Positions 29,567 to 59,185 of a stretch of 64,000 bases of DNA are shown in pieces (the first letter of the stretch is position 1; the number at the start of each line of letters is the position of its first letter). The stretch comes from Gemmatimonadota bacterium. Its GTDB lineage: Bacteria; Gemmatimonadota; Gemmatimonadetes; Longimicrobiales; Gaopeijiaceae. The notes beneath the pieces are model-generated. The model worked only from the letters and a program-made list of their open reading frames with translations, searched no databases and was not told where the DNA came from. The translations under genes and the position numbers were made by a program. The DNA lies in NCBI GenBank assembly GCA_022826005.1, contig JAJDVT010000058.1, positions 6,605 to 70,604 on the forward strand. Direction: 5' to 3'.

Positions 29567-29640
<74 letters not shown>

Positions 29641-29714
29641 TGCTCAGCAAGTGGTTCCCGGGAACGCCGCCTCCGTGCGGCGTTTCTGGCGTATGCAGGA
29701 TGCGGCGGCCTCCG

Positions 29715-29787
29715 GGCCAGGTAGCTCAGTTGGTAGAGCACGCGACTGAAAATCGCGGTGTCGGCGGTTCAATTCCGCCCCTGGCCA
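29715..29787 (+). tRNA. tRNA-Phe (GAA)
   Basis: Hand-folded cloverleaf GGCCAGG/CCTGGCC acceptor, anticodon loop CTGAAAA, T-loop TTCAATT. Confidence 0.9.
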
Positions 29788-29801
29788 CTGTGAGACATCA
29801 C

Positions 29802-29875
29802 AGGTCCGTAGCTCAATTTGGTAGAGCACCGGTCTCCAAAACCGGCGGTTGGGGGTTCGAGTCCCTCCGGGCCTG
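29802..29875 (+). tRNA. tRNA-Trp (CCA)
   Basis: Acceptor AGGTCCG/CGGGCCT, anticodon stem CCGGT/ACCGG, loop CTCCAAA. Confidence 0.9.
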
Positions 29876-29890
29876 CATGCGTGGAATTAC

Positions 29891-29962
29891 GCCCTCATCG
29901 TCTAACGGTTAGGACACCACTCTTTCAAGGTGGAGATCGGGGTTCGATTCCCCGTGAGGGTA
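29891..29962 (+). tRNA. tRNA-Glu (TTC)
   Basis: Acceptor GCCCTCA/TGAGGGT, anticodon loop CTTTCAA, T-arm CGGGG-TTCGATT-CCCCG. Confidence 0.88.
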
Positions 29963-29997
29963 TGCGGCAGGGGATCGCCCTCGACCGTATGCAGGAT

Positions 29998-30072
29998 GGG
30001 GCTGTAGCTCAGTTTGGTTAGAGTGCCGGTCTGTCACACCGGAGGCCGCGGGTTCGAGTCCCGTCAGCCCCG
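29998..30072 (+). tRNA. tRNA-Asp (GTC)
   Basis: Acceptor GGGGCTG/CAGCCCC, anticodon loop CTGTCAC. Confidence 0.9.
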
Positions 30073-30134
30073 CTGGGCTTTTTGAAAATCCGGGTCCATT
30101 GGAACGAGTGTTCCTGGCTCATTTCCGCACTGCC

Positions 30135-30207
30135 GGGGCCGTAGCTCAGTTGGGAGAGCGCCTGAATGGCATTCAGGAGGTCAGGGGTTCGACTCCCCTC
30201 GGCTCCA
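30135..30207 (+). tRNA. tRNA-Ala (GGC)
   Basis: Acceptor GGGGCCG/CGGCTCC with the G3:U70 identity pair, anticodon loop ATGGCAT. Confidence 0.9.
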
Positions 30208-30290
30208 CTGGCAGCCCTGCGTAATGGATCACCGCCGTAAGCTGGCGGCGACTCCATTGCGGGCTGTCGGAAAGTGACGGTTTGCCGGGA

Positions 30291-30375
<85 letters not shown>

Positions 30376-30392
30376 TTGACTCAATCTGGAAT

Positions 30393-30476
30393 GCCCACGT
30401 GCTGGAATTGGTAGACAGGCTGGTTTGAGGGACCAGTGTTCGAAAGGACGTACAGGTTCGAGTCCTGTCGTGGGCA
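30393..30476 (+). tRNA. tRNA-Leu (GAG), type II
   Basis: Acceptor GCCCACG/CGTGGGC, anticodon loop TTGAGGG, long variable arm. Confidence 0.88.
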
Positions 30477-30480
30477 TGAA

Positions 30481-30554
30481 GCGCCCGTAGCTCAATTGGA
30501 TAGAGTACCTGACTACGGATCAGGGGGTTGGGGGTTCGAGTCCTCCCGGGCGTA
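30481..30554 (+). tRNA. tRNA-Arg (ACG)
   Basis: Acceptor GCGCCCG/CGGGCGT, anticodon loop CTACGGA. Confidence 0.88.
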
Positions 30555-30579
30555 CTTGGCCGGCGCAACCGCCGGAAGC

Positions 30580-30653
30580 GGGCGCGTAGCTCAGTTGGTT
30601 AGAGTGCCACGTTGACATCGTGGAGGTCACAGGTTCGAGTCCTGTCGCGCCCA
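30580..30653 (+). tRNA. tRNA-Val (GAC)
   Basis: Acceptor GGGCGCG/CGCGCCC, anticodon loop TTGACAT. Confidence 0.9.
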
Positions 30654-30700
30654 TTGTGGGGCCTGCCGTGGGGGGAGGCGCCCGCGGGTCGCAGGGGAAC

Positions 30701-30773
30701 GGGGCCGTAGCTCAGTTGGGAGAGCGCAGCGTTCGCAACGCTGAGGTCAGGGGTTCGACTCCCCTCGGCTCCA
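30701..30773 (+). tRNA. tRNA-Ala (CGC)
   Basis: Same backbone as the GGC isoacceptor (G3:U70), anticodon loop TTCGCAA. Confidence 0.9.
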
Positions 30774-30826
30774 CTGGTCGCGGCGGAAGGGCCAGGCCGC
30801 GCCGCTTGCCGCACACAGCAAACATC

Positions 30827-30899
30827 GCCACCGTAGCTCAGCTGGTAGAGCACGTCACTCGTAATGACGGGGTCGTCGGTTCGAGTCCGACCGGTGGCT
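30827..30899 (+). tRNA. tRNA-Thr (CGT)
   Basis: Acceptor GCCACCG/CGGTGGC, anticodon loop CTCGTAA. Confidence 0.9.
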
Positions 30900-31162
30900 C
30901 TGACCCTGACGTAACGTTAGGGTCGCGTTCGCGGAATGGACGGTACATGCGTTCGTGGATAATCCCGGCGTCGCACCGAGGGCGGCGAGGCGCCGGGCTG
31001 GCAAGGCGGGACGAAGGGCGCATAGCCGAGCTATTCGCCCGAGAGCAACGCAGAGCGGTGCTTCGGAAACTCGAAAGTAAAGAAAACATGACACCAGGTA
31101 AAGTCCTCTTTACACTTGGGAGTGTGGAGCGCCGCGGCCCAGCGCGGATGCATCGCCTCCCG

Positions 31163-31183
31163 AATGCAGCGGGGACTTATTCC
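31163..31183 (+). repeat. 21-nt exact direct repeat, copy 1 (AATGCAGCGGGGACTTATTCC)
   Basis: Identical to 45767-45787. Lies 10 nt upstream of tRNA-Gln. Confidence 0.9.
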
Positions 31184-31193
31184 ACGGACTGCT

Positions 31194-31266
31194 AGCCCCG
31201 TGGTGTAATTGGCAACACGTCTGACTCTGGATCAGAAGAGTCCTGGTTCGATCCCAGGCGGGGCTA
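31194..31266 (+). tRNA. tRNA-Gln (CTG)
   Basis: Acceptor AGCCCCG/CGGGGCT, anticodon stem TCTGA/TCAGA, loop CTCTGGA. Confidence 0.88.
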
Positions 31267-31269
31267 CTT

Positions 31270-31354
31270 GGAGGGATGGCTGAGCGGCTAAAAGCGGCGC
31301 CCTGCTAAGGCGTTGATCCCAGTGATCACGTGGGTTCGAATCCCACTCCCTCCG
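31270..31354 (+). tRNA. tRNA-Ser (GCT), type II
   Basis: Acceptor GGAGGGA/TCCCTCC, anticodon loop CTGCTAA, long variable arm. Starts 3 nt after tRNA-Gln. Confidence 0.88.
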
Positions 31355-31370
31355 TTGAGCGTCAGCGTCT

Positions 31371-31454
31371 GGAGGCGTAGTCCTAATTGGTAAGGCACCG
31401 CACTCGAAATGCGGCGTGCGCGAGCACTTGGGGGTTCGAGTCCCTCCGCCTCCG
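31371..31454 (+). tRNA. tRNA-Ser (CGA), type II
   Basis: Acceptor GGAGGCG/CGCCTCC, anticodon loop CTCGAAA, variable arm GTGC-GCGA-GCAC. Confidence 0.85.
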
Positions 31455-31538
31455 CTTGCAGTCGGTGGATGGGCCCGCGGAAGCATCGTAGCGGACCGCC
31501 AGCAACACTCCTCCGCACAGGAATGGACCCGGTTGCCA

Positions 31539-31612
31539 CGGGGCGTGGCTCAGTCCGGTAGAGCGCTGCGTTCGGGTCGCAGAGGTCCCCGGTTCGAATC
31601 CGGGCGCCCCGA
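31539..31612 (+). tRNA. tRNA-Pro (CGG)
   Basis: Acceptor CGGGGCG/CGCCCCG, anticodon loop TTCGGGT. Confidence 0.9.
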
Positions 31613-31654
31613 TTACCCGAAGGAGGAGGCCGCGTGCCCCCGCCTTCGGTTGCA

Positions 31655-31738
31655 GGACGGGTGGCCGAGTGGCTTAAGGCGCACGACTGGAAATCGTGTG
31701 GGCATCTGCCCGCGTGGGTTCGAATCCCACCCCGTCCG
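31655..31738 (+). tRNA. tRNA-Ser (GGA), type II
   Basis: Acceptor GGACGGG/CCCGTCC, anticodon loop CTGGAAA, long variable arm. Confidence 0.88.
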
Positions 31739-31912
31739 TTGAGGGTGATCGAGTTGGCCGCCCGAAGCTCTGTCCCGTCGAGCTCGGCGAGGACCCCCGT
31801 CCCCGGTGGTTGCGAAACCGGATTCCCGGACACGACGTAGGTGAAACGGATCGCAAGTCACGCTTGCGATTGAATCACATCACCTCGTCCCTTGCCGCCG
31901 ACCGGTTGCCCC

Positions 31913-32887
31913 GTGCTTCAAATCAGAGACCTCGTCAAGGTTTACCCGGGACCGGTAGCGGCGCTGCAGGGTGTCTCGCTCGAAGTCCCGAAAGGCATGT
32001 TCGGCCTCCTCGGGCCCAACGGCGCAGGGAAGACCACCCTGATGCGCATCGTCGCCGGGCTGCTCGAACCCACGTCCGGAACCGTCTACTTCGACGGTGA
32101 GGACATCGTCGACGACCCGCGCCGCATCCACCGCCAGTTGGGCTACCTGCCGCAGGACTTCGGCTTCTACCCCCACCTCACGGGCGAGTCCATGCTCAGG
32201 TTCCTCCTTGTGCTCAAGGGCGTGCAGGCGCCCGGCGGGGTGAAGCACCTCGCGGCGGAGCTCCTCGACCGCGTCAACCTCTCGTACGCCGCCAACCGCA
32301 AGGTGAAGACCTACTCGGGCGGGATGCTCCAGCGGCTGGGGGTCGCACAGGCGCTCGCGGGCGACCCGAGGCTTCTCGTGGTCGACGAACCCACGGCGGG
32401 GCTCGACCCGGAGGAGCGGCTCCGCTTCTACCGCCTGCTGGCCGAGCTGGCGGAAGACCGCACGGTGCTGCTGTCCACGCACATCGTCGAGGACATCTCG
32501 GTGCTGTGTCCGCGGGTCGCGATCATGTACGCCGGGCGATTCGTGGCCGCCACGACGCCGGTGGAAGCGCGGAACCGGCTGGCCGGGACGATCTATCAGG
32601 GCGAAGTCGAGCAGGGTGACCTGGCGACCATCGAGGGCAACTACCGGGTCACGCAGGCGATCCTCATCGAGGGGCGCAACCAGGTGCGCATCCATCTGCC
32701 CGAGGGGCCGCCGCCAACCGGCTTCGAGCCGGCGGAACCCACGCTGGAGGATGCGTACCTGCTGTTGGCGCAAGCGAACGGGGAAGGCGGCAGCGCCGAT
32801 GCGGGCCGCGCCGCCTCCTCGGACGTGCAGGGCGAGGGCGCCAGCGACGCCCGGCGGGAGGGCGCCAGCGCCGGAAACGCCTTGTGA
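31913..32887 (+). CDS. ABC transporter ATP-binding protein (copy 1)
   Basis: Walker A GPNGAGKTT, signature YSGGMLQRLG, Walker B LLVVDEPTAGLD. I prefer the GTG at 31913 (VLQIRDLVKVY) because the paralogue starts MLQIRDLVKVY, although a TTG at 31892 is also in frame. The C-terminal tail is about 29 aa longer than in copy 2. Confidence 0.9.
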   Translation: MLQIRDLVKVYPGPVAALQGVSLEVPKGMFGLLGPNGAGKTTLMRIVAGLLEPTSGTVYFDGEDIVDDPRRIHRQLGYLPQDFGFYPHLTGESMLRFLLVLKGVQAPGGVKHLAAELLDRVNLSYAANRKVKTYSGGMLQRLGVAQALAGDPRLLVVDEPTAGLDPEERLRFYRLLAELAEDRTVLLSTHIVEDISVLCPRVAIMYAGRFVAATTPVEARNRLAGTIYQGEVEQGDLATIEGNYRVTQAILIEGRNQVRIHLPEGPPPTGFEPAEPTLEDAYLLLAQANGEGGSADAGRAASSDVQGEGASDARREGASAGNAL

Positions 32888-35800
32888 ATTCGTTCACAAG
32901 GTGGTGGGAGGTCGTCCGGCGCGAGTTCCTGACCCAGGTCCGCCGTCCCGGCTACTGGATCCTCCTCGTGCTAATGGGGATGCTGGCGTTCGGGCTTTCC
33001 GACGGGTCGGTCACCATCGCATCCGGCGGCGGTGAGGCGGGACGCCCGCACCTGACCTCGGTCTTCGGCCAGAGCCGGGTGCAGGCCGTCCTGATCGTTT
33101 CGGTGGGCGGACTGTTTCTGGCGATCTTCTCCGGGCTGGCTGTGATCCGGGACATCGAACTCCGCGTCGGGGAGGTGTTCCATGCGACGCGCCTGACGGT
33201 CCGTGAGTACGTGTGGGGGAAGTTCTGCGGAGGCGTCGCGGTGTTCGGGCTCATCTGGCTTCTGTACCTGTGCACGTCGATCGGCTTCAACCACATCCTG
33301 CACGGCGGGAAGGGGCACATCGGCTTCTTCTCGCTGGCCAACTATGCCTTCCCCACGCTGCTCTTCGGGCTCCCGCAGCTCCTCCTGTTTGCGGGGGTTC
33401 CGTTCCTGATCGGCATCTGGTCGCGCCGCTCGCTCCTGGTCTTCCTGTTCCCGCTGGTTGTGCTCCTGCTCACCTTCTCGGTGCTGACCACCTGGTCGCC
33501 GGGCTGGCTGTCTCCGGAAGTCAACCGGACGTTGATGCTGATCGATCCGTCCGGTTTTCGCTGGCTGACCGAGACGTTCCTCAAGGTTGACCGCGGGGTC
33601 GACTTCTACAACACGTCGCCGCTGCGCCCGGACCTCGGCTTCGTCCTGAGTCGTGCGGCGTACTGCGCCGCCGGGCTGGCCTCCGTGTCCGTGGCCGCGG
33701 CAAGCTACGCCCGCCGCCTCGCCACGGGAGCCTCCGATTCCCCCATCGTGCGGCTGTTCCGGCGTCGCAGAGCCCGCGCGACAGCCGGGCCCCCGTCAGG
33801 CGCACCGCTCAGGGACCTCGAGATGGCGACCCGACCGCTCGGATTCGCCCGGGCCGCCGTGGCGATCGCGCGGAGCGAGGTCCGGGACCTGGTCGCCCGC
33901 CCGCCCATCTACTTCTTCGTGCCGCTGATCCTGCTGCAGGCGATCTCGACGACGACGCTCGGGTACGGGTACTTCGGGTCGCGCGTCCTCCTGACCCCCG
34001 GAACCGTGGCCGACCAGCAGGTCAACACCCTCAACCTGCTGATCTGCTGCCTGCTGCTCTTCTACACGGTCGAGTCGCTGCACAAGGAACGCAACCGGGG
34101 CATGCACGAGATCCTGCACGCGGCTCCCGTCGGTACCGGCGCGATGCTCCTGGGCAAGACGATGGGCAACGCGGCCATGGCCGGCCTGATCCTCCTCGCC
34201 GCGCTGGTGTCGGGCGCCGGGATCATCGTGTACCAGCAGATCGTCAACGAAAGTCCGGTGGGGTACGCCCTCTTCCCGTTCGTCGCGGTGTGGGGCGGCG
34301 TGTTGCTGCCCACCTTCGCCTTCTGGTCGGCGCTCGTTACCGCGTTCTTCTCTCTCCTGCGCAACCGCTACGCGGCGTACGGAGCCGGGCTCGTCTTCCT
34401 CATGTACACGGTCTTCCGACAGGAGACCGAGGGGACCCCCGGCTGGCTGACGAACTGGCAGGGGTGGAATCTGGTCCGGTGGACCGACATGGGCGCATTC
34501 ACCCTGCACGGTACCCCGCTGCTGCTGAACCGGCTGCTCTACCTCAGCTTCGTCCCGCTCCTGGTTGCGGTGTCGGTGCGCTGGTTCCCCCGGCGTGCCT
34601 TCGACGCCGCGGCGACCCTGAACCGCCTCCGTCCCCGGGCGCTGGCACTGGGTACCCTGCGTCTCCTTCCCCTGGCGGTTGCGCCCATCGTCCTGGCGTC
34701 GTTGCTGTTCTTCGGCGGCCGCTCCGGCTATCAGCGTCCCGGCGTGAATGATTGGCGGGAAGCCTACTGGCAGCGCAACTTCGCGACCTGGGACGGGCTC
34801 GAAATGCCGTCGGTGACGCATGTGGACCTGGATCTCGCCATCGAGCCCGCGCAGCGCTCCATCGCCGTAACGGGGGCGTACACCTTCCTGAACCACCGCG
34901 ACCAACCGTACGAGGAGCTTCCGATCACCGCCGGTCGTTGGGGCTCCATTGAGTGGACGCTGGCGGGAGAGATCCACGAACCGGAAGACCGCGCCAACCT
35001 GTTCGTATTCGCGCTGGACGGTCCCCTCGCCCCCGGGGACACCGTCACGATCGGCTTCAGCTACGACCTGGAGCGCCATGAAGGCATGAGCCGGCGGCCG
35101 GGCGGGACCAGCCAGTTCATTCTTGAGTCGGGCGTGGTGCTCAACGGGTTCGAGCCGACCTTCGCGCCGGTCCCGGGCTACGATCCCGACATCGGGTCGC
35201 CCGGCTTCCGCGGGCCCGAAATCGAGGACGACTTCTACCTGGGCCAGACCGAGCCGCTGATCGGGTGGGCGGGCAGACCCTTCACCGTGCGCACGCGCAT
35301 CACCATCCCGGAGGAGTACACGGCCAACGGCGTGGGACAGCTGGTCAGCGAAGAGGTGGCCGACGGCAGGCGCACCGTGGTTTGGGAGACCGACGACCCG
35401 GTCCGCATGTTCAACGTCATCGCCGGGCGGTACGACGTGATCGATGGGGATGGAACAACGATCTACTACCACCCGGCGCACGACTACTACGTGGAGGAGA
35501 TGTCCGCGACCCTGGACGCGGCGCGCAAGTACTACGCCGAGTGGTTCCATCCCTTCCCGCGGAGCGTGCTCAAGCTCTCCGAGATGCCGGCCTTCTCCCC
35601 GGGAGCGCAGGGGTTTCCGACCAACATCACGTTCAGTGAGGAGATGGGTTTCCTGACGCAGCGCGATCCCCGCTCCCACCTGGGGTTCATGGTGGTGGCG
35701 CACGAGGCCGCGCATCAGTGGTGGGGCAACCTGCTCGGGCCCGGCCGCGGTCCCGGGGGCAACATGCTGTCGGAGGGGATGTCCCACTATTCGACGATCC

Positions 35801-36459
35801 TGCTGCACGAACAGGTCTACGGCGACCGTTACCGGATGGAGTTCACGAAGCGGTTGGAAGAGGAATACGTCAGTCGGCGCCGCGTGGACACGGAGCGCCC
35901 GATGGTCAAGTCGATGGGCGGCGCCTACAACCGGGGCTCGTGGGCGATGTGGATGCTGCAACAGCAGATGGGACGGGAGAATATCCTTGCGGGATTGCGC
36001 GCGTTCATTGCGAGCTACAGGGACGGCCCGGACCATCCGGTGATTCAGGACATGCTGGCCGTGCTGCGTGACTTCGCGCCGGACACGGCGGCGTTCGACG
36101 CGTTCGCTGAGCAGTGGTTCTTCGAGGTCGTGTTGCCGGAGTACAGGTTGTCCGAAGTGACGAGGGTGCAGGAAGGGGATGAATGGGTGGTGCGGGGAAC
36201 GGTGGAGAATGTGGGGACGGGGCGGATGCCGGTGCAGGTTGGGGCGGTCGCGGGGGAGCGGTGGTCCGACCGGGGCGATGATGCGGACCGGTCCGTGGTG
36301 GCAGCGGGATACCGGGATGCCCGCACCGAGGTGGTGCTGGGCGCCGGGGAGTCGGCGGAGTTCGTGATCCGCGCCGCGTTCGAGCCCGACCGCGTGGTGA
36401 TCGACCCGGACGTGCTGGTCCTGCAGGTGAACCGGGCCACCGCGACGTTCGATTTCTGA
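32884..36459 (+). CDS. ABC-2-type permease fused to an M1-family (gluzincin) zinc peptidase domain (copy 1)
   Basis: 1191 aa, with a GTGA overlap with the ATPase gene. The N-terminal ~620 aa are multi-TM. The C-terminal domain carries VVAHEAAHQWWGN (HEAAH 35701-35715) plus a downstream SEG glutamate. Confidence 0.88.
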   Translation: MNSFTRWWEVVRREFLTQVRRPGYWILLVLMGMLAFGLSDGSVTIASGGGEAGRPHLTSVFGQSRVQAVLIVSVGGLFLAIFSGLAVIRDIELRVGEVFHATRLTVREYVWGKFCGGVAVFGLIWLLYLCTSIGFNHILHGGKGHIGFFSLANYAFPTLLFGLPQLLLFAGVPFLIGIWSRRSLLVFLFPLVVLLLTFSVLTTWSPGWLSPEVNRTLMLIDPSGFRWLTETFLKVDRGVDFYNTSPLRPDLGFVLSRAAYCAAGLASVSVAAASYARRLATGASDSPIVRLFRRRRARATAGPPSGAPLRDLEMATRPLGFARAAVAIARSEVRDLVARPPIYFFVPLILLQAISTTTLGYGYFGSRVLLTPGTVADQQVNTLNLLICCLLLFYTVESLHKERNRGMHEILHAAPVGTGAMLLGKTMGNAAMAGLILLAALVSGAGIIVYQQIVNESPVGYALFPFVAVWGGVLLPTFAFWSALVTAFFSLLRNRYAAYGAGLVFLMYTVFRQETEGTPGWLTNWQGWNLVRWTDMGAFTLHGTPLLLNRLLYLSFVPLLVAVSVRWFPRRAFDAAATLNRLRPRALALGTLRLLPLAVAPIVLASLLFFGGRSGYQRPGVNDWREAYWQRNFATWDGLEMPSVTHVDLDLAIEPAQRSIAVTGAYTFLNHRDQPYEELPITAGRWGSIEWTLAGEIHEPEDRANLFVFALDGPLAPGDTVTIGFSYDLERHEGMSRRPGGTSQFILESGVVLNGFEPTFAPVPGYDPDIGSPGFRGPEIEDDFYLGQTEPLIGWAGRPFTVRTRITIPEEYTANGVGQLVSEEVADGRRTVVWETDDPVRMFNVIAGRYDVIDGDGTTIYYHPAHDYYVEEMSATLDAARKYYAEWFHPFPRSVLKLSEMPAFSPGAQGFPTNITFSEEMGFLTQRDPRSHLGFMVVAHEAAHQWWGNLLGPGRGPGGNMLSEGMSHYSTILLHEQVYGDRYRMEFTKRLEEEYVSRRRVDTERPMVKSMGGAYNRGSWAMWMLQQQMGRENILAGLRAFIASYRDGPDHPVIQDMLAVLRDFAPDTAAFDAFAEQWFFEVVLPEYRLSEVTRVQEGDEWVVRGTVENVGTGRMPVQVGAVAGERWSDRGDDADRSVVAAGYRDARTEVVLGAGESAEFVIRAAFEPDRVVIDPDVLVLQVNRATATFDF

Positions 36460-37700: not shown

Positions 37701-37745
37701 TTGACATGTACGACATGGTGTCGCACTATACGATAGCATGTCGTA
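37701..37745 (+). promoter_or_regulatory. promoter with two tandem BlaI-type palindromic operators
   Basis: Perfect -35 TTGACA (37701-37706) with a -10-like CACTAT/ACTATA 17-18 nt downstream. Operator 1 is TACGACA-tgg-TGTCGCA (37709-37725). Operator 2 is TACGATA-gca-TGTCGTA (37729-37745). Confidence 0.7.
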
Positions 37746-37773
37746 GTTAAACGTGTCAGGAGGCAGCCACCCG

Positions 37774-38142
37774 GTGACGATACCGAAACTTGCGAACGCA
37801 GAACTCGCGGTCATGAACCGGCTCTGGGAGGAGGGGACCCTGACGGCCCGCCAGCTCCGAGAGCATCTCTATCCGGACGCCACGAGACCGATGCACGGCA
37901 CGATTCAGAGGCTGCTGCAGCGGCTGGAGGCCAAGGGCTTCGTCGAACGTGACAGCGACCGGGCCGCGCACCTCTTTTCGCCGCGGATCAGCCGAGAGGC
38001 CTACGCGGCCGGTTGCCTGGAGTCCTTGGCGGACCAGGTCACCGGCGGCTCGTTCGCGCCGATGATCACGCACTTGGTGGAGGAGCGGAAACTATCCGAC
38101 GCCGACATGGATCACCTGCGCCGACTGTTGGAGGAGAAGTGA
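37774..38142 (+). CDS. BlaI/MecI/CopY-family transcriptional repressor
   Basis: Winged-helix pattern LANAELAVMNRLWEEGTLTARQLREHL...HGTIQRLLQRLEAKGFVER. GTG 37774 lies 10 nt after CAGGAGG. An upstream GTG at 37753 is also in frame. Confidence 0.88.
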   Translation: MTIPKLANAELAVMNRLWEEGTLTARQLREHLYPDATRPMHGTIQRLLQRLEAKGFVERDSDRAAHLFSPRISREAYAAGCLESLADQVTGGSFAPMITHLVEERKLSDADMDHLRRLLEEK

Positions 38143-39578
38143 CGGACCTGGCCCTGCAGATCGCAGGCAGCAAGCTTGCAATCTCGGTGATCCTCGGCGG
38201 CGTGGTGTGGCTCGCCGCGATCGGCGAGCGACGACCACGCCTGTGCCATGCGCTCTGTCTCGCCCTGCTCTCGGCTCTTCTCATCCCGCCGTTGATTGCT
38301 ATCCCCGTCCTGCGGCCCGATCCGACCGCCGCTGTGTCGTTGGACCCGGTGCTCGGCGAAGCCACTTTCCCGATCGAGACCGATGCTCTGACCCGTGTCG
38401 CCGGGGATGTCTCGTTAGGGCGAGGGTTTGTGCGGTACGGAAAGGCCGGACTCGTCCCCGTCTGGTTCCTCGGGGTTGCGGTAGTTCTGGGTTGGACGAT
38501 CGTGCGGGCACGATCCTTCCGCCGTTTCCTCCGGGGAGCCTCGATCGAAGCCCCGGCCACGTTACGGCACGAGGCGAAGGAGGTCGCGCACATCCTTGGC
38601 CTCGCGACGGTTCCGGCGATCTACACGACTGACGCGCTGATTTCTCCGATGGTCTGCTGGAGCGGTGGCGCGGTGCGCGTATACATCCCTTCAACCCTGC
38701 TCAACGGCATGGAACCGGCCCAGTCACGCTGGATTCTGGCGCACGAACTGGCCCATGTCCGCCGCCGCGACCACCTCGTCCGCTGGCTGGAGTGGCTCGC
38801 ATGTACGGCGTTTTGGTGGAACCCGGTTGCGTGGTGGGCGCGACGACGGCTCCGGTCTGCAGGGGAGGTATGCTGCGACGCCATGGTCGTGCGTGCGTTC
38901 AACTGCACTCCCCGGGCCTACGCCAGCGCGCTGATGCGGGCTATCGACCTTGTTCGTACCGGAGGAGCGCCTCGCGTTGCCACCTTCGCTAGCCCCGCCG
39001 GCAGCGGGCAGCGAATGCGCATACTCGAAAAGAGACTTGGAGTGATCATGACGGCCAGGTCCGCCAGGACCCGTCCACCCGCGCCGCGCCTCGCAACGCG
39101 GGGCGGTTTCGTGGCCGTCCTGGCCCTGGGTCTGGTGTACTGCGGCGAGCAGCCCTCACCGGCCGCCCCCGAATTGCCTGGCTGGCTTGCCGAGCAGGAT
39201 CTCGATCAGATCGCCGAATACGCGATTGCGCCTCTCCACTCGCTTCTGTCGCCGGGCGGCGGGGACGCTGGCTGGACGGGCCGCGTCCCCAGGGATGCCA
39301 ACGACGTCTCGGTCGAAGCCGACGGCCTTCGCTCGATGTCGGATGGGGAGTACACGGTTCCGGGATTGGGCTTGATTCTGGTCGACTACGACCAGCGGGT
39401 TCCATACCGGGAGCAGGAAGCGCTGTGGACCTCCATCGCCCAACTGACGGCGAGCGATCGAAGCGCGGGATTCCTGGTTGCTCGCCAGGCCGACGATGGT
39501 GAATGGATCTTTCTCGACAAGGTCCCCGAAGCTTCAAGCTCCACGCTGCATCTCATTTCCCTGGAGCGCGATCAATGA
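38139..39578 (+). CDS. M56-family (BlaR1-like) membrane metalloprotease / signal transducer with uncharacterised C-terminal domain
   Basis: GTGA overlap with the repressor gene. HELAHVRRRDH zinc motif (HELAH at 38742-38756). The N-terminal TM domain is followed by a further TM segment and a ~170-aa C-terminal domain with no SxxK motif. Confidence 0.88.
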   Translation: MTDLALQIAGSKLAISVILGGVVWLAAIGERRPRLCHALCLALLSALLIPPLIAIPVLRPDPTAAVSLDPVLGEATFPIETDALTRVAGDVSLGRGFVRYGKAGLVPVWFLGVAVVLGWTIVRARSFRRFLRGASIEAPATLRHEAKEVAHILGLATVPAIYTTDALISPMVCWSGGAVRVYIPSTLLNGMEPAQSRWILAHELAHVRRRDHLVRWLEWLACTAFWWNPVAWWARRRLRSAGEVCCDAMVVRAFNCTPRAYASALMRAIDLVRTGGAPRVATFASPAGSGQRMRILEKRLGVIMTARSARTRPPAPRLATRGGFVAVLALGLVYCGEQPSPAAPELPGWLAEQDLDQIAEYAIAPLHSLLSPGGGDAGWTGRVPRDANDVSVEADGLRSMSDGEYTVPGLGLILVDYDQRVPYREQEALWTSIAQLTASDRSAGFLVARQADDGEWIFLDKVPEASSSTLHLISLERDQ

Positions 39579-40813
39579 ACGGGGTGTCCGGAATGTCCCG
39601 TCCCTCCACGATCGACATGGTGAGACACGTCCTGCTGTCAGCGGCCGTCACGGTCGGCGTGGGGGCATGTGACGACGCCCATCGCGCCGCCGGTCTCCGG
39701 GACGCCGACCGGTTCGTCGCCCTCGAGATGGATACCATCTACCAAATCGGACTCGACGGAGACGGGCACTACTTCGGCCGCGTATCATCCATCGGCTTCG
39801 ACGCCTCTGGGCGCCTCCACGTGCTGGACACTGACGCGCATGAGGTCACGTCTTGGGCCGACGATGGCCGGATGATCAGGCGTTTCGGGTCAAGGGGCGA
39901 CGGCCCCGGCGAATTCCGGACCCCGCGGGGGGCGTACGTGTTCCGGGACGGCACCGTGGCGGTTCGTGACATCGGCCATCGCGCCCTTGTGACCTTCGAT
40001 TCGGCCGGCGAGCATGTGGGCAACATTCGCATGGCAGGCGGCCGTGTGCCGGGCAACGGCGCGGTCGTCCTCGCCGGGATGCGGCTGGTTGGGCCCCATG
40101 ACCCCTGGATGACCAGCGGCAGCACGACGGACAGTGAGCGGCCGGTATACCGGTTTTCCCTTGAGCGCGACTCTCTCAGATCCGAACTGCTGTTTGTCGC
40201 CTGGCGCTCGACCGAGGACGACATGAGCTTCGTTCCCACCCTGCGCCACGCCGCGCTTCCCGACGGCCGGATCGTGGTGGCCGACTCGGCCGTGGGCTAC
40301 CGGATTGACATCCTCTCGACGGAGGGGGCGATCGACGGTACGCTCGAGCGGGCCGTCACCCCTTGGCCGGTGACGGAAGAAGTGATGGAAGCCGAGCGCG
40401 AGCGTCTGATCGCCGGTCTCCCCGATGAGAGAGCGCTGGCTCGGGCCGTGGAGGAGATGCAGGCGGCGATGGGGATCAGGCTCGCAAACGGAGTTGACCA
40501 TGCCGAGACCATGGAAAACTCGCGCGCCCTTATCGCGGATCGTCGATTTGCCAGCCACATTCCGGTGATCCGCCGCCTGCGAGCGGACTGGGACGGCCGG
40601 ATCTGGGTCGTCCGGAGCGACGCGACGGGAGGCGGGGACGGACCGATCGACCTGATCACCGTGGAGGGCGGGTATCTGGGCAGCTTGCATCAGGAAGACC
40701 TCGGACTTCCGTCGGCCTTCGGCCCGGATGGACTGATGGCCTACCGGCGAACTGACGAGTTCGGCAGGCAGGGCATCCTGGTCGTGCGATTGCGACAAGG
40801 GCAGCTGGATTGA
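39575..40813 (+). CDS. 6-bladed beta-propeller family lipoprotein (paralogue A)
   Basis: ATGA overlap with the M56 gene. Lipobox VGVGAC. Family motif GSRGDGPGEF and repeated hydrophobic-strand/DxxG blades. Confidence 0.82.
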   Translation: MNGVSGMSRPSTIDMVRHVLLSAAVTVGVGACDDAHRAAGLRDADRFVALEMDTIYQIGLDGDGHYFGRVSSIGFDASGRLHVLDTDAHEVTSWADDGRMIRRFGSRGDGPGEFRTPRGAYVFRDGTVAVRDIGHRALVTFDSAGEHVGNIRMAGGRVPGNGAVVLAGMRLVGPHDPWMTSGSTTDSERPVYRFSLERDSLRSELLFVAWRSTEDDMSFVPTLRHAALPDGRIVVADSAVGYRIDILSTEGAIDGTLERAVTPWPVTEEVMEAERERLIAGLPDERALARAVEEMQAAMGIRLANGVDHAETMENSRALIADRRFASHIPVIRRLRADWDGRIWVVRSDATGGGDGPIDLITVEGGYLGSLHQEDLGLPSAFGPDGLMAYRRTDEFGRQGILVVRLRQGQLD

Positions 40814-41278: not shown

Positions 41279-42166
41279 ATGCTTCAAATCAGAGACCTCG
41301 TCAAGGTCTACCCCGGACCCGTCGCGGCGCTGCAGGGCGTCTCCCTCGAAGTCCCGACAGGCATGTTCGGCCTCCTCGGCCCCAACGGCGCGGGCAAGAC
41401 CACATTGATGCGCATCGTGGCCGGCTTGCTGGAGCCCACCTCCGGCACCGTCCACTTCAACGGCGAGGACATCGTCGCCGACCCTCGCCGCATTCGCCGC
41501 CAGCTGGGCTACCTGCCCCAGGATTTCGGCTTCTACCCTCACCTCACGGGCGAGTCCATGCTCCGGTTCCTCCTCGTGCTGAAGGGAGTGCAGGCGCCCG
41601 GGGGGCTGAAGCACCTCGCGGCGGAGCTCCTCGACCGGGTGAACCTTTCCTACGCGGCCAGGCGCAAGGTCAAGGGCTACTCGGGCGGGATGCGGCAGCG
41701 GCTGGGGATCGCGCAGGCGCTGGCGGGAGATCCGCGGCTGCTGATCGTCGACGAGCCCACCGCGGGGCTCGACCCGGAAGAGCGGCTCCGCTTCTACCGC
41801 CTGCTCGCCGAGCTCGCCGAGGACCGCACGGTGCTGCTGTCGACGCACATCGTCGAGGACATCTCGGTGCTCTGCCCGCGCATGGCGATCATGCACGCAG
41901 GGCGCTTCGTGGCGGACACCACGCCGGCCGAGGCGCGGGGCCGGCTGGCCGGAACGATCTTCCAGGGCACGGTCGGCCGGGAGGGGCTCGCCGAGATCGA
42001 CCGCAACTACCGGGTGACGCAGGCAATCCTGATCGAGGGGCGCAACCAAGTGCGGATCCACCTGCCCGAGGGGTCGCCGCCGGACGGCTTCCAGGCTTCG
42101 GAACCCACGCTGGAGGACGCGTACCTGCTGCTGTCGCAGGCCAACGGGTCCGGAAACGCCTTGTGA
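41279..42166 (+). CDS. ABC transporter ATP-binding protein (copy 2)
   Basis: 295 aa, colinear with 31913..32887 and highly similar to it. Walker A GPNGAGKTT, signature YSGGMRQRLG, Walker B LLIVDEPTAGLD. Confidence 0.92.
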   Translation: MLQIRDLVKVYPGPVAALQGVSLEVPTGMFGLLGPNGAGKTTLMRIVAGLLEPTSGTVHFNGEDIVADPRRIRRQLGYLPQDFGFYPHLTGESMLRFLLVLKGVQAPGGLKHLAAELLDRVNLSYAARRKVKGYSGGMRQRLGIAQALAGDPRLLIVDEPTAGLDPEERLRFYRLLAELAEDRTVLLSTHIVEDISVLCPRMAIMHAGRFVADTTPAEARGRLAGTIFQGTVGREGLAEIDRNYRVTQAILIEGRNQVRIHLPEGSPPDGFQASEPTLEDAYLLLSQANGSGNAL

Positions 42167-45100
42167 GTTCTTTCACAAGATGGTGGGAGGTCGTCCGGCG
42201 CGAATTCCTGACCGGGCTCCGCCGTCCCGGCTACTGGATCCTCCTCTTCCTCATGGGGATGCTGGCGCTCGGGCTGTCCGACGGGTCCGTGACCATCGCA
42301 TCCGGCGGCGGCGAGGCGGGACGACCCCATCTCACCTCGGTCTTCGGCCAGAGCAGGGTCCAGTCCATCCTGATCATTTCGCTGGGCGGCCTGTTCCTGG
42401 CAATCTTCTCCGGGTTGACCGTGATCCGGGACATCGAACTCCGCGTCGGGGAGGTGCTCCATTCGACGCGCCTCACGATCCGCGGGTACATCTGGGGCAA
42501 GTTCTGGGGGGGCGTGGCCGTCTTTGCCCTGATCTGGACGCTCTATCTGCTCACCTCGATCGGCTTCAACCACGTCCTGCAGAGCGGGAAGGACCACATC
42601 GGCCCGTTCGTGCTGGCCAACTATCTCTTCCCGACGCTGCTCTTCGGGGTTCCGCAGATCCTCCTGTTCGCGGGGGTTCCTTTCCTGATCGGCACCTGGT
42701 CGCGCCGCCCGATCCTGGTCTTCCTGTTCCCGATGGTGGTGCTTCTGCTCGCCTTCACGGTGCTGACCACCTGGGCGCCGAGCTGGATGTCGCCGGAAAT
42801 CAACCGGACCCTGATGCTGATCGATCCGTCCGGTTTCCGCTGGCTGACCCAGACATTCCTCGTGATCGACCGCGGGGTCGACTTCTACAACACGTCTCCG
42901 CTTCGCCCCGATGTGGGCTTCGTGATGAGCCGGCTGGCATTTGTCGCCGCCGGGCTGTTCGCGGTGACCGGGGCCGCGGCGAGCTACACGCGGCGCCTGC
43001 GCACGGGCGCCTCGGATTCGCGCATCGGGCGACTGTTCCGCCGGCGCCGAACACCCCCGGCGGCCAGGCCCGCGTCAGGCGCGCCCCTCAAGGTTCTGGA
43101 GATGGCGACGCGTCCCCTGGGCTTCTGGAAGGCGGCCATGGTCATCGCCCGGAGCGAAGTCCGGGACCTCGTGACGCGTCCCGCCATGTACTTCTTCGTG
43201 CCGCTTATCCTGCTGCAGGTGATCTCGTCGACGGCGCTGGGCTACGGTCCCTTCAGTTCGCGCGTCCTCCTGACGCCCGGCACCGTCGCCGAGCAGCAGC
43301 TCAACACGCTGAACCTGCTGATCTGCGCGCTGCTGCTCTTCTACACGGTCGAGTCGCTGCACAAGGAACGCAACCGCAGGATGCACGAGATCTACAACTC
43401 GGCACCCGCGGGCACCGGCGCGATGCTGCTGGGCAAGACGATGGGAAACGCCGCCATGGCCGGTCTCATCCTCCTGGCCGCGCTGTTCTCGGGCGCCGGG
43501 ACCATCCTGTACCACCAGCTCGTCAACGGCAGTCCGGTGGGGTACGATCTCTTCCCGTTCATCGCGGTGTGGGGCGGCGTGCTGCTCCCCACCTTCGCCT
43601 TCTGGACAGCGCTCATCACGGCGCTTTTCGCCCTCCTGCGCAACCGCTACGCGGCCTACGGGGCCGGGCTCGCGATCCTCATCTACACGATCTACCGACA
43701 GGAGACGGGGGGGACCCCCGGCTGGCTCATGAACTGGCAGGGGTGGAACCTGGTCCGCTGGACCGACTTGGGGGCATTCACCCTGCACGGCACCCCGATC
43801 CTGCTGAACCGGCTGCTCTATCTCAGCTTCGTCCCGCTTCTGGTTGCGGTTGCGGTGCGGTGGTTCCCGCGGCGGGCCTTCGACGCGACGGCGACCCTGA
43901 ACCGCCTGCATCCCAAGTCGCTCGCACTCGGCACCCTGCGTCTCCTGCCACTGGCGGTCGCGCCCGTCGTGCTGGCCTCGATGCTCTACTTCGGCGTCCG
44001 CTCCGGGTATCAGCGTTCCGGCGCGAGTGCGTGGAGGGCAGACTACTGGGAGCGCAACTTCGCGACCTGGAGCGGCTTCGAGATGCCGTCGGTGTCCCAT
44101 GTCGACCTGGATCTGGAGATCGAGCCCGCGCAGCGGTCCATCGCGGTCAAGGGGGCGTACACGTTCCTGAACCACCGCGACCATGCGTACGAGGAACTCC
44201 CGGTCACCGCCGCACCGTGGGACTCCATGGAGTGGACTCTGGCCGGGGAGACGTACGAACCCGAGGACCGCGACAACCTGTTCGTCTTCACGCTGGACGA
44301 GCCCCTGGCCCCCGGAGATACCGTCACGATCGGCTTCAGCCACAATCTGGTACGGCTTGAAGGCATGAGCCGGCGGCCGGGCGGCGCCGCCGACTTCATC
44401 CTCGAGTCGGGCGTCGTGCTCGACGGCTTCGAACCGACTTTCGTGCCGGTCCCGGGGTACGATCCGGACATCGGGTCGCCCGGCTTCCGCCGCCCCGAAA
44501 TCGAGGACGACTTCTACCTGGGCGAGACGGAGCCGCTGATCGGGTGGGCCGGCAGCCCCTTCACCGTTCGCACCCGCATCACCATCCCGGAAGGGTACAC
44601 GGCCAATGGGGTCGGCCAGCTGGTCAGCGACGAGGTGGCCGGGGGCTGGCGCACGGTGGTATGGGAGACCGACCACCCGGTGCGCATGTTCAACGTCGTC
44701 GCCGGCAGGTACGACGTGACCGAGGGGGAAGGGACGGCGATCTACCATCACCCCGGTCACGACTACTACGTCGAAGAGATGTCCGCGACCCTGGACGCGG
44801 CTCGGAGATACTATTCCGAGTGGTTCCATCACTTCCCCTGGAGCGTTCTCAAGCTCTCGGAGCTGCCGATCTTCTTCCCGGGCGCACAGGGATTTCCGAC
44901 GAACATCGTCTTCGGCGAGGGGATGGGATTCCTCACCCAGCGCGATCCCCGCTCCCACCTGGGGTTCATGGTGGTGGCGCACGAGGCCGCGCATCAGTGG
45001 TGGGGCAACCTGCTCGGGCCGGGCCGGGGTCCCGGGGGCAACATGCTCTCGGAAGGGATGTCGAACTACGCGACCACCCTGCTCCACGAACAGGTCTACG

Positions 45101-45738
45101 GCGACCGCTACCGGATGGAGTTCACGAAGCGGATGGAGTCGACCTACACGCGTAGGCGGCGCGTGGACACGGAACGCCCCATGGTCGACTTGATGGGCGG
45201 TTCCTACAACAAGGGCGCGTGGGCGATGTGGATGCTTCAGCAGGAGATGGGCCGGGAGAACATCCTGGCGGGACTGCGCGCGTTCATCGGGAAGTACAAG
45301 GAGAACCCGGACCATCCGGTGATCCAGGACATGCTGGCCGTTCTGCGGGACTTCGCGCCGGACACGGCGGCGTTCGACGACTTCACCGGGCAGTGGTTCT
45401 TCGAAGTGGTGCTGCCGGAGTACACGCTTTCGGAGGTGACGAGGGTGCAGGAGGGGGATGAATGGGTGGTGCGGGGGACGGTTGAGAATGTGGGGACAGG
45501 GCGGATGAGGGTGCAGGTGGGCGCCGTTGTGGGCGAGCGATGGTCTGACGAGGGCGAGGATGCCGATCGTTCGGTAGTGGCTGAGGGGTACCGCGACGCG
45601 CGCACCGAGTTGGAGCTGGGCGCCGGGGAGTCGGCGGAGTTCGTGATCCGTGCCGCGTTCGAGCCCGGCCGCGTGGTGATCGACCCGGATGTGCTGGTCC
45701 TGCAGGTGAACCGGGACGCTGCCGTGTTCGAGTTCTGA
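42163..45738 (+). CDS. ABC-2-type permease fused to an M1-family (gluzincin) zinc peptidase domain (copy 2)
   Basis: GTG 42163 (VSSFTRWWEVVRREFL), with the same GTGA overlap as copy 1. Exactly 1191 aa. HEAAH at 44980-44994. The track ORF 41242..45738 (1498 aa) is an out-of-frame upstream extension across the ATPase gene. Confidence 0.88.
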   Translation: MSSFTRWWEVVRREFLTGLRRPGYWILLFLMGMLALGLSDGSVTIASGGGEAGRPHLTSVFGQSRVQSILIISLGGLFLAIFSGLTVIRDIELRVGEVLHSTRLTIRGYIWGKFWGGVAVFALIWTLYLLTSIGFNHVLQSGKDHIGPFVLANYLFPTLLFGVPQILLFAGVPFLIGTWSRRPILVFLFPMVVLLLAFTVLTTWAPSWMSPEINRTLMLIDPSGFRWLTQTFLVIDRGVDFYNTSPLRPDVGFVMSRLAFVAAGLFAVTGAAASYTRRLRTGASDSRIGRLFRRRRTPPAARPASGAPLKVLEMATRPLGFWKAAMVIARSEVRDLVTRPAMYFFVPLILLQVISSTALGYGPFSSRVLLTPGTVAEQQLNTLNLLICALLLFYTVESLHKERNRRMHEIYNSAPAGTGAMLLGKTMGNAAMAGLILLAALFSGAGTILYHQLVNGSPVGYDLFPFIAVWGGVLLPTFAFWTALITALFALLRNRYAAYGAGLAILIYTIYRQETGGTPGWLMNWQGWNLVRWTDLGAFTLHGTPILLNRLLYLSFVPLLVAVAVRWFPRRAFDATATLNRLHPKSLALGTLRLLPLAVAPVVLASMLYFGVRSGYQRSGASAWRADYWERNFATWSGFEMPSVSHVDLDLEIEPAQRSIAVKGAYTFLNHRDHAYEELPVTAAPWDSMEWTLAGETYEPEDRDNLFVFTLDEPLAPGDTVTIGFSHNLVRLEGMSRRPGGAADFILESGVVLDGFEPTFVPVPGYDPDIGSPGFRRPEIEDDFYLGETEPLIGWAGSPFTVRTRITIPEGYTANGVGQLVSDEVAGGWRTVVWETDHPVRMFNVVAGRYDVTEGEGTAIYHHPGHDYYVEEMSATLDAARRYYSEWFHHFPWSVLKLSELPIFFPGAQGFPTNIVFGEGMGFLTQRDPRSHLGFMVVAHEAAHQWWGNLLGPGRGPGGNMLSEGMSNYATTLLHEQVYGDRYRMEFTKRMESTYTRRRRVDTERPMVDLMGGSYNKGAWAMWMLQQEMGRENILAGLRAFIGKYKENPDHPVIQDMLAVLRDFAPDTAAFDDFTGQWFFEVVLPEYTLSEVTRVQEGDEWVVRGTVENVGTGRMRVQVGAVVGERWSDEGEDADRSVVAEGYRDARTELELGAGESAEFVIRAAFEPGRVVIDPDVLVLQVNRDAAVFEF

Positions 45739-55811: not shown

Positions 55812-55867
55812 CGTTATCGGTCACCCGATTGTGACGGTTCCAACCCCTCGACAAGCGAGTCACCCAA

Positions 55868-58800: not shown

Positions 58801-59185
58801 CGAGCTGCGCGGGATCGAGGCCGCGATGGCGCGGGTGGAGGTGAGCGACGAGCTGCAGGCGCGCGCCGATGAGCTGGGCGAGCAGGCGACGGCGGTGTTG
58901 CGGGGGCTGCGGGGTGGTGGGGGAAGGGGCTTTGGGGGTGGCGGGGGCGGGGGCGGCGCCGTGACCGTGCAGAGCCTGCTTGGAACAGCCGGCGGCATGA
59001 ACCAGACGTACGCGCCCGCGACCGACGCCGAAAAGACCGCGCTGGAGGAGGCGGGCCCGGCACTCGACGAGCAGCTCGCCGCGCTCAATGAACTGGTGGC
59101 CGCGATGCCCGCCTTCCGCGACGCGCTCGACGCGGCGGGCGTGCCCTGGACGCCGGGCAGGCCGGTCGGCCGCGGAGAGCCCTGA
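55868..59185 (+). CDS. VPS10/sortilin-like BNR (Asp-box) repeat protein, secreted
   Basis: 1105 aa with a signal peptide. Repeated Asp-box-like S/T-x-D-x-G-x-T/S-W motifs are present (KSTSGGVDWE, KSVDAGETFE, RTMDGGESWE, KSIDGGDTWT, RTDNGGRAWR, RSMDGGVTWA, SPDRGDSWQ, TTDDGVTWR, STDQGQSWT, TLDGGESWV). Gly/Phe-rich low-complexity inserts lie near the C-terminus. Confidence 0.88.
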   Translation: MFSRATLHHANPATLRRTGGTLPGPALALALALAFLLLPPTLLDAQQGGRRGPGGGGGAAGQSLDDRSLVNRVAARSIGPAVMSGRIVDIAVAETPGMRGGRLGTIIYIAAATGGIWKSTSGGVDWEPIFDDAGVGSMGDVTVAPSNANIVWVGTGEPNNQRSSSYGDGVYKSVDAGETFEHMGLRTSQHVGRIVIHPGDPEIVYVAAVGPLWAPGGERGLYRTMDGGESWEAVLTIDQHTGVTDIAMDPTNPDILYAAALQRERRAYSYVGGGPGSGIYKSIDGGDTWTKLTRGLPTSDMGRIGLDISLSHPQTVYAVIEGSEQGVYRTDNGGRAWRRMSDIASIPWYFGQIRVDPQDPEVVYHLGVPLQRSMDGGVTWASAASGGVHVDHHAMWINPEDPTHLLLGNDGGFYVSHNFGDTWDFSPNLPLSQFYAVGIDMQEPFFGIYGGLQDNSTWGGPSATRNSIGVVNADWFRMQGGDGFFAAIDPNDHNIAFVESQNGNLVRFNGRTGERKSIRPRPAPGEDAYRFNWSSPIQLSPFDPATVYFAGNHVFKSPDRGDSWQVRGLDLTREIDRNVLPMMGSVPANNAVARHQGTAVFSNISTMHVSSHQPGHIVTGTDDGQVSVTTDDGVTWRRMTDFPDVPDTTYVSKVRWSAHDEATIYATFDGHRSNDFNPYVLKSTDQGQSWTSISGDLPEFGNIRAFAEHHENPNVLFVGTEIRPFVTLDGGESWVPLENGIPPSPVHDIKIHHRDNALVVATHGRGFYVIDDLNPIVHMAEAKAAGGPYLFPVADAFAYVVNTAPSSGIHAGREYRAPNPAYGAGIAYYMPEGTRGERKLEIVASDGQTVRTLETETGAGLQQARWDLRWDAPWSGPPANQQGGGGGFGGGFGGFGGGFGGGGGAGPPALGDQYTARLTITPDEGEPTVMERSFTVEMDDLIGMTRAQLAELQELRLRHRRLSATQQMAARQAQEIQSELRGIEAAMARVEVSDELQARADELGEQATAVLRGLRGGGGRGFGGGGGGGGAVTVQSLLGTAGGMNQTYAPATDAEKTALEEAGPALDEQLAALNELVAAMPAFRDALDAAGVPWTPGRPVGRGEP

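Follow-up and report, generated by a model that had tools for sequence, protein, structure and literature searches.

A 64-kb stretch of DNA from a Gemmatimonadota bacterium (64,000 nucleotides of contig JAJDVT010000058.1, hereafter the window, with a G+C content of 65-70%) contains, within positions 37774-40813, three genes on the + strand which specify a 122-residue repressor, a 479-residue M56 membrane protease and a 412-residue beta-propeller protein predicted to be a lipoprotein. These genes constitute a real and conserved three-gene operon of a sponge-associated Gemmatimonadota bacterium, and this operon is probably an autoregulated, non-beta-lactam (or 'atypical') BlaI-BlaR operon in which the propeller gene represents the only cargo in cis.

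A conserved operon behind a pair of putative operators

The promoter elements and the three genes are located as follows, no strand being assigned to the palindromes:

37701-37706, + strand: TTGACA, putative -35 element, all but invariant across an alignment of 11 orthologous upstream regions
37709-37725: putative operator 1, 17-bp palindrome TACGACATGGTGTCGCA, found by pattern scan, its position being kept in orthologs
37729-37745: putative operator 2, 17-bp palindrome TACGATAGCATGTCGTA, starting 20 bp past the start of operator 1, found by pattern scan and ortholog conservation
37760-37764, + strand: Shine-Dalgarno sequence GGAGG, 9 nucleotides (nt) 5' of the repressor start, read from the sequence, with GGAG kept in orthologs
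37774-38142, + strand: winged-helix repressor of the BlaI/MecI/CopY family, 122 residues (PF03965, E=1.4e-25)
38139-39578, + strand: M56 (BlaR1-type) membrane zinc metalloprotease, 479 residues (PF05569, E=2.3e-25)
39575-40813, + strand: six-bladed NHL-type beta-propeller lipoprotein, 412 residues (predicted from an AlphaFold2 model, Foldseek and Pfam NHL)

Both putative operators (TACGACATnATGTCGTA) are situated just downstream of the conserved TTGACA and directly upstream of the repressor gene. The pattern TACGACATNATGTCGTA, when allowed at most three mismatches, has two matches in the 64-kb window where 0.05 would be expected, and at this threshold the window contains no further operator copies, for example at other propeller genes. 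Nearly all of 85 related loci have the same palindromes ahead of the first gene of their BlaI-M56 operon, usually paired and 20-21 bp apart, in Gemmatimonadota and Planctomycetota alike, and no operator match was found in these 85 loci away from BlaI-M56 operon promoters. The eleven aligned upstream regions display a corresponding footprint, in that they are unconserved before TTGACA and strongly conserved from there to the start codon. The promoter region thus looks like an autoregulated BlaI-type promoter, to which binding of the repressor is predicted from the sequence.

The operator TACGACATnATGTCGTA is common to Gemmatimonadota and Planctomycetota, with small subfamily-specific differences, and it is nearly the same in paralogous BlaI-M56 systems of a single genome (OZ220702.1, loci L012, L053 and L074; L numbers designate individual loci). 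Such near-identity of operators raises the question of cross-regulation among paralogs.

The repressor covers positions 2-115 of the 115 positions of the PF03965 (Penicillinase_R) profile and aligns end to end with MecI (2e-7) and with PDB entry 2g9w (7e-9), these being its best matches in the PDB. Entry 2g9w, the title of which is only 'conserved hypothetical protein', is presumably BlaI (Rv1846c) of M. tuberculosis. The winged-helix family profile, the end-to-end alignment with MecI and the inverted repeats at its own promoter all suggest that the repressor has the make-up of its family, namely a winged-helix N-terminal domain with C-terminal dimerisation helices, and inverted-repeat operators at the promoter that it would regulate.

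The gene junctions are exactly where the sequence-only reading, made without database searches, had placed them. At the first junction (GTGA, 38139-38142) the GTG start codon of the M56 gene (38139-38141) lies over the TGA stop codon of the repressor gene (38140-38142), and at the second (ATGA, 39575-39578) the ATG start codon of the propeller gene (39575-39577) lies over the TGA of the M56 gene (39576-39578), resulting in a separation of -4 nt in either case. Four-base gene overlaps are frequent in bacterial operons and are unremarkable when taken alone. The tight three-gene unit that had been proposed from these overlaps holds with regard to spacing, which remains close in orthologs (-4 to 0 nt between repressor and M56 genes, +5 to +20 nt between M56 and propeller genes), yet the 4-nt overlap between M56 and propeller genes is itself not kept, since the propeller genes of orthologous loci begin 5-20 nt past the M56 stop codon.

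The start of the repressor gene assumed in that reading, a GTG at 37774 instead of the mechanical open reading frame (ORF) start at 37753, is accepted because an ATG aligns at this position in ten orthologous loci behind a conserved GGAG. In the case of the propeller gene there are three in-frame candidate ATG codons (39575, 39593 and 39617), among which the one at 39575 has the best Shine-Dalgarno sequence (GGAG, 8 nt upstream).

The closest proteins are from Gemmatimonadota, labelled Longimicrobiales or Candidatus Palauibacter, and the public sequencing runs that contain the locus are mostly sponge metagenomes. The trio of repressor, M56 and propeller genes was retrieved from all six distinct orthologous loci (L001, L005 and L008-L011), in which the M56 proteins are 63-76% identical to the one described here and the repressors 83-91%; the paired identities of M56 and propeller proteins among orthologs are 76/78, 72/78, 68/76 and 63/59%. 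Considering that the flanking genes differ between these loci, the trio is the unit of conservation; in L001 and L005 the gene following it is convergent. The trio is also present in L016, L018 and L051, with M56 proteins that are 48-50% identical and a propeller that is another paralog (28-29% identical). The adjacency of M56 and propeller genes is therefore conserved in relatives, so that its absence, named at the outset as an outcome that would speak against the pairing, is not the case. In locus L011 (contig CAXXDD010000002.1, 8479-9485) two ORFs take the place of a single propeller gene behind the M56 gene, which points to a frameshift pseudogene or to an error of the assembly.

The M56 protease and its orphan tail

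Within the M56 gene the following segments were distinguished, with reference to two alignments, of which A1 consists of 27 tail sequences and was used for the AlphaFold2 model (confidence being expressed as predicted local distance difference test, pLDDT), and A2 of full-length close orthologs:

38742-38756, + strand: codons for HELAH, residues 202-206, zinc-binding and catalytic (BlaR1 alignment; invariant in A2)
38865-38879, + strand: ExxxD motif EVCCD, E243-D247 (BlaR1 alignment)
39102-39146, + strand: short hydrophobic segment GGFVAVLALGLVYCG, residues 322-336, presumed fourth transmembrane (TM) segment, kept across paralogs with unrelated tails
39147-39365, + strand: variable, low-confidence tail linker, residues ~337-409 (pLDDT 29-44; A1 gappy and poorly conserved)
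39366-39563, + strand: small alpha/beta orphan module, residues ~410-475 (pLDDT ~70; conserved block of A1)

The M56 protein scores 89.9 bits against PF05569 (cut-off 31), and its HELAH and EVCCD motifs are matched by HEYAH and EVEAD in BlaR1 of S. aureus (8exs) in an alignment that is restricted to residues 108-269; the zinc site that had been recognized in the sequence-only reading is thereby placed at residues 202-206 and matched to its BlaR1 counterpart. The likeness to BlaR1 extends over residues ~92-273 only, and the NCBIfam profile blaR1_generic is correspondingly matched at profile positions 93-274 of 585 only, with 59 bits against a cut-off of 400.

Hydropathy analysis shows clear hydrophobic segments at residues 4-31, 34-60 and 103-124. 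At the end of the presumed fourth segment the residues L332, V333, Y334, C335, G336 and E337 are invariant in A2. More generally, in Gemmatimonadota M56 paralogs (L014-L085) a conserved GL[VI]YC[GSD] closes the final hydrophobic segment, whatever tail follows, and GL[VI]YC, when taken together with the Arg-rich stretch that precedes it, is reminiscent of an internal lipoprotein signal peptide whose lipobox is atypical.

The tail past the conserved Cys335 comprises 144 residues, instead of the ~170 residues estimated previously, of which the first ~78 are unstructured in the AlphaFold2 model and only the last ~65 are predicted to fold. The mean pLDDT of the tail is 50, the ~65-residue strand-helix-strand-strand-strand module being predicted at ~70, that is, with moderate confidence.

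No SxxK motif is present anywhere in the M56 protein, in agreement with what had been reported for its C-terminal domain, and PF00905 does not match the protein. The accompanying remark that this domain is almost devoid of lysine is correct insofar as the tail contains a single Lys residue, yet it carries no information, since the proteome of the entire window contains 1.5% Lys and the probability of finding at most one Lys in 144 residues is 0.35. A Foldseek comparison of the tail with the PDB gave nothing below E=1, and a profile search of PDB sequences as well as Pfam scans of all 27 tails returned only noise (HNF4-alpha at E~0.5, DUF3024 at E=0.026), with no match to a penicillin-binding protein (PBP) or class D beta-lactamase fold in either the PDB-profile or the Foldseek search. 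The transpeptidase/PBP fold, whose detection in this domain had been suggested as the decisive observation against the earlier proposal, is thus not detected.

When 1.84 billion cluster representatives were searched exhaustively with HMMER, residues 309-479 yielded three convincing matches, all from the same clade. Genome contigs were scanned with the full-length ortholog alignment, no stretch of the A1 tail alignment being conserved enough. Among the proteins matched by the full-length search, ~30 have the same tail, with identities as low as ~26%, and all of these are M56 proteins; those with a named source are from Gemmatimonadota, except for P0028 from a metagenome-assembled genome labelled Gammaproteobacteria, which is likely mis-binned. 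Because neither Foldseek nor the PDB and Pfam profile searches gave anything meaningful, the tail is an orphan, clade-restricted sequence and has no penicillin-binding fold.

Role and surroundings of the propeller lipoprotein

Two features of the propeller gene are of relevance to its product:

39668-39670, + strand: codon of the lipobox cysteine, Cys32 (VGAC), the cysteine being kept in orthologs
40376-40537, + strand: three-helix insertion between blades, residues 268-321 (~55 residues; AlphaFold2 model)

The AlphaFold2 model of the propeller, which was based on a 60-sequence alignment, has a mean pLDDT of 86 and a predicted template modelling score (pTM) of 0.83, and contains at least 24 strands arranged in six blades. 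In Foldseek its top 23 matches are NHL domains (TRIM2, Thin and Brat), with E values down to 4e-14, while the best bacterial match is 4raa, the exported protein BF0058 of Bacteroides fragilis (E=2e-9). The Pfam NHL profile is matched with 21.9 bits (cut-off 20), and DUF5128 with 19.2 bits, which is under its 22.9-bit cut-off. The N-terminus (MVRHVLLSAAVTVGVGAC) has a cysteine after a hydrophobic stretch and a small residue (A; in a few orthologs S or T), this cysteine being present in the listed full-length orthologs; this pattern fits a predicted lipoprotein. An identity with ScyF, the NHL protein of scytonemin biosynthesis, was rejected, the score being 31 bits against an NCBIfam equivalog cut-off of 350 and only the NHL repeats being common to both. 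The idea that the Asp at lipoprotein position +2 signals retention at the inner membrane was also dropped, because this position varies between orthologs (D, E, G or N).

The family to which the propeller belongs encompasses 267 database clusters at E<=1e-5. It had been counted six times in the window; the family hidden Markov model identifies five full copies, starting at 39575, 50839, 53134, 54404 and 62354 (the last on the - strand), and the sixth, at the edge of the window (63605-64000, E=0.12), is truncated and doubtful. Across relatives, a propeller is found immediately downstream in 21 of the 58 Gemmatimonadota M56 genes for which enough downstream sequence was available, and in none of ~30 Planctomycetota loci. 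The propellers that adjoin M56 genes do not represent a single clade, but are distributed over ~6 clades mixed with non-adjacent paralogs in a rough, unbootstrapped neighbour-joining tree.

The regulation that we propose is drawn by analogy with BlaI/MecI. Repressor dimers would bind the two tandem 17-bp palindromes 5' of their own gene and thereby keep the operon low. The host is presumably diderm, as is assumed for its phylum. The M56 protein would be composed of three N-terminal TM helices, a cytoplasmic protease, the short fourth hydrophobic segment and a 144-residue periplasmic tail. A periplasmic or envelope cue, rather than acylation by a beta-lactam, would activate the cytoplasmic HELAH/ExxxD protease. 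The activated protease would then cleave the repressor and derepress the operon. Judging from gene organisation, the propeller would be the sole cargo under this promoter, and the level of this lipoprotein would be the output of the switch.

It is less likely, indeed rather unlikely, that the propeller serves as a co-sensor which binds a periplasmic ligand, docks on the M56 tail and activates or restrains the protease, the operon then specifying a three-component sensor. Such a role would be in line with the tight adjacency that recurs in at least ~6 propeller clades, with propeller identity tracking M56 identity among orthologs, with the fact that each of the two sub-clades of the tail family is paired with a propeller clade of its own, and with the predicted exposure of both partners to the periplasm at the inner membrane. 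However, the co-divergence is equally expected from simple operon co-inheritance, and M56 proteins with quite different tails are followed by propellers of this family as well: other M56 subfamilies of the same order have unrelated helical tails, in place of the alpha/beta module present here, yet are directly followed by a propeller paralog (L053, L055, L063, L071, L074 and others), often inside arrays of propeller genes. Conversely, M56 proteins with a diverged version of the same tail occur without an adjacent propeller (L003, L004, L007 and L013), and in the window only one of the five full propeller paralogs adjoins an M56 gene. Of the two roles initially considered for the third gene, a ligand-presenting partner or a regulated output, the latter is therefore favoured over an obligatory partnership, given that propellers follow unrelated tails, that some M56 proteins with the same tail lack a propeller and that most paralogs lack an M56 neighbour.

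Three of the loci without a propeller have the gene order M56-repressor-M56 (L004, 6900-10242; L007, 4068-7479; and L013), both M56 genes having a tail of the same family; in this arrangement a 33-residue ORF and an operator pair are located upstream of the first M56 gene.

NHL propellers belong to the 'eukaryotic-like' repeat proteins, a kind that is reportedly enriched in sponge symbionts. It is conceivable, albeit quite improbable, that cassettes of this type in sponge-associated Longimicrobiales/Palauibacterales are three-component host-sensing devices, in which the propeller would capture a host or envelope ligand and signal via the orphan periplasmic module to the M56 protease, which would then cleave the repressor, and that dozens of paralogous cassettes with nearly the same operator per genome could cross-talk and so tune the arrays of propeller surface proteins.

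Less probable still is an adjacency without functional meaning, which would arise if propellers were so abundant that one often adjoins an M56 gene. Their abundance is indeed considerable, with 5-6 copies in the 64-kb window and arrays of up to five or more around other loci, in addition to the number of database clusters. Against this, in all six distinct orthologous loci the propeller gene is on the same strand and immediately downstream (-4 to ~20 nt) in spite of differing flanks, and the 21 adjacent cases among 58 give a binomial P of 8e-8 at an assumed background of 10% and of 6e-5 at 15%, although the cases are not independent.

A genuine BlaR1/MecR1-type beta-lactam sensor with a highly diverged sensor domain, which the family likeness of protease domain and repressor alone would support, is effectively refuted: the 144-residue tail is too short for the BlaR1 sensor domain, which we take to span roughly residues 335-585 of 585, it lacks SxxK, PF00905 and any PBP/class D fold match, BlaR1 profiles and structure align to residues ~92-273 only, and the operon contains no beta-lactamase or PBP gene, the operator being confined in the 64-kb window to the operon's own promoter. 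The view already taken in the sequence-only reading, that this protein is not a beta-lactam sensor of the BlaR1/MecR1 type, is in accordance with all of this.

The preferred reading, an autoregulated atypical BlaI-BlaR operon with the propeller as its cargo, has to be weighed against a number of observations. No recognisable -10 element was found at the promoter, and a scan with consensus models identified neither a + strand sigma-70 promoter nor an intrinsic terminator, where the consensus may not suit this phylum. The residues of the repressor that align to the N-F cleavage site of MecI, which we take to be N101-F102, are H-L (H-F in 2g9w), so that cleavage of the repressor by the M56 protease is only assumed. 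The fourth hydrophobic segment of the M56 protein consists of ~15 hydrophobic residues and falls under the hydropathy threshold, which is why the periplasmic location of the tail rests on the analogy with BlaR1. The 21 adjacent propellers are not independent cases, since they fall into the ~6 clades of the unbootstrapped tree, and the background to which they were compared is assumed and is not a genome-wide count. Finally, the runs bearing the locus, which comprise sponge and marine metagenomes (DNA) and runs of unknown type, have a flat depth along the contig and are uninformative with respect to co-transcription.

With regard to the surroundings of the operon, a tandemly duplicated gene pair is present on both sides of the trio (31874-36459 and 41279-45738, + strand), each pair consisting of an ABC ATPase and a ~1190-residue fusion of an ABC-2 permease and an M1 aminopeptidase, with the two copies being 88% and 81% identical at the protein level. 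Two other strains have assemblies whose contigs cease to match the window near 37635, shortly before the promoter. Further upstream, 17 tRNA genes are encoded on the + strand within 2.2 kb (29567-31738), all above the Rfam gathering threshold (Met, Phe, Trp, Glu, Asp, Ala x2, Leu x2, Arg, Val, Thr, Gln, Ser x3 and Pro). Near the propeller paralogs are genes for a 1160-residue leucine-rich-repeat protein with a weak M66 peptidase match (45811-49293, - strand), a metallophosphoesterase (49096-50838, + strand) and a 1116-residue Sortilin/BNR-repeat protein (55835-59185, + strand), a repertoire characteristic of those sponge symbionts in which eukaryotic-like repeat proteins abound.

Comparison with known BlaI-BlaR systems

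In common with the canonical BlaR1-BlaI and MecR1-MecI systems of S. aureus and B. licheniformis (8exp-8ext, PMC9834060), the operon described here combines an M56 protease with HExxH/ExxxD motifs, situated between TM segments (predicted for the present protein), with an adjacent winged-helix repressor of the BlaI family, palindromic operators at the promoter and, presumably, autoregulation. It differs from these systems in that an extracellular transpeptidase-like sensor, SxxK and a beta-lactamase or PBP2a target are lacking, and in that repressor, sensor and cargo are encoded on one strand, whereas the canonical target gene is divergent. The repressor furthermore has H-L where MecI has N-F at the cleavage position, and the half-sites of the operators (TACGACAT) are 1 nt apart, as compared to the TACAnnTGTA core that is given for the family in PMC7253601.

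Among ~15,000 M56 proteins only ~6% possess a transpeptidase domain (PMC13492132), so that the unusualness implied in the sequence-only reading for a sensor without a penicillin-binding domain was overestimated. According to the same survey the commonest M56 architecture has a C-terminal region of no known domain, often largely unstructured and ending in a small globular part that is predicted weakly, and a blaI-like gene is found within five genes of 96% of M56 genes (PMC13492132). BlaIR systems that lack a transpeptidase domain and regulate functions other than beta-lactam resistance have been described (PMC13492132, 10.64898/2026.08.03.742534). In our locus an M56 gene without a transpeptidase domain is positioned directly 3' of a PF03965 repressor gene, with a 4-nt overlap, and the same arrangement recurs in nearly all related loci; the system belongs to the largest known class of M56 sensors.

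The operon shares with the atypical BlaIR systems (CenIR of C. difficile, PMC13492132; PvmSR of P. aeruginosa, 10.64898/2026.08.03.742534; and mycobacterial BlaIR) an M56 protein whose short tail is for the most part unstructured and belongs to no known family, an adjacent repressor and the absence of a link to beta-lactam resistance. Residues 334-460 of CenR likewise form an unstructured tail with a small, weakly predicted globular end (PMC13492132). In contrast to these systems, the tail studied here is an unrelated orphan sequence of one Gemmatimonadota clade, and an NHL propeller lipoprotein is encoded as a dedicated third gene, of which the publications on CenIR (PMC13492132) and PvmSR (10.64898/2026.08.03.742534) make no mention. 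The propeller itself resembles DUF5128 proteins and BF0058 (4raa), which are exported or lipoprotein six-bladed NHL-type propellers of large paralog families, yet its sequence similarity to DUF5128 is marginal, and the ~55-residue three-helix insertion as well as the repeated linkage to BlaI-M56 genes set it apart.

The specific traits of the present system are thus the clade-restricted tail module and the recurring linkage to an NHL propeller, while the current picture of the BlaI/BlaR family is unchanged. Non-beta-lactam BlaIR switches are very numerous and ligands are known for almost none of them. The operon is a compact and strongly conserved example, and its clear operator pair, its single dedicated cargo and the dozens of paralogs with swapped sensor tails make it usable as a comparative system for what non-penicillin tails sense; in addition, it suggests how uncultured sponge symbionts may regulate expanded families of NHL-propeller lipoproteins.

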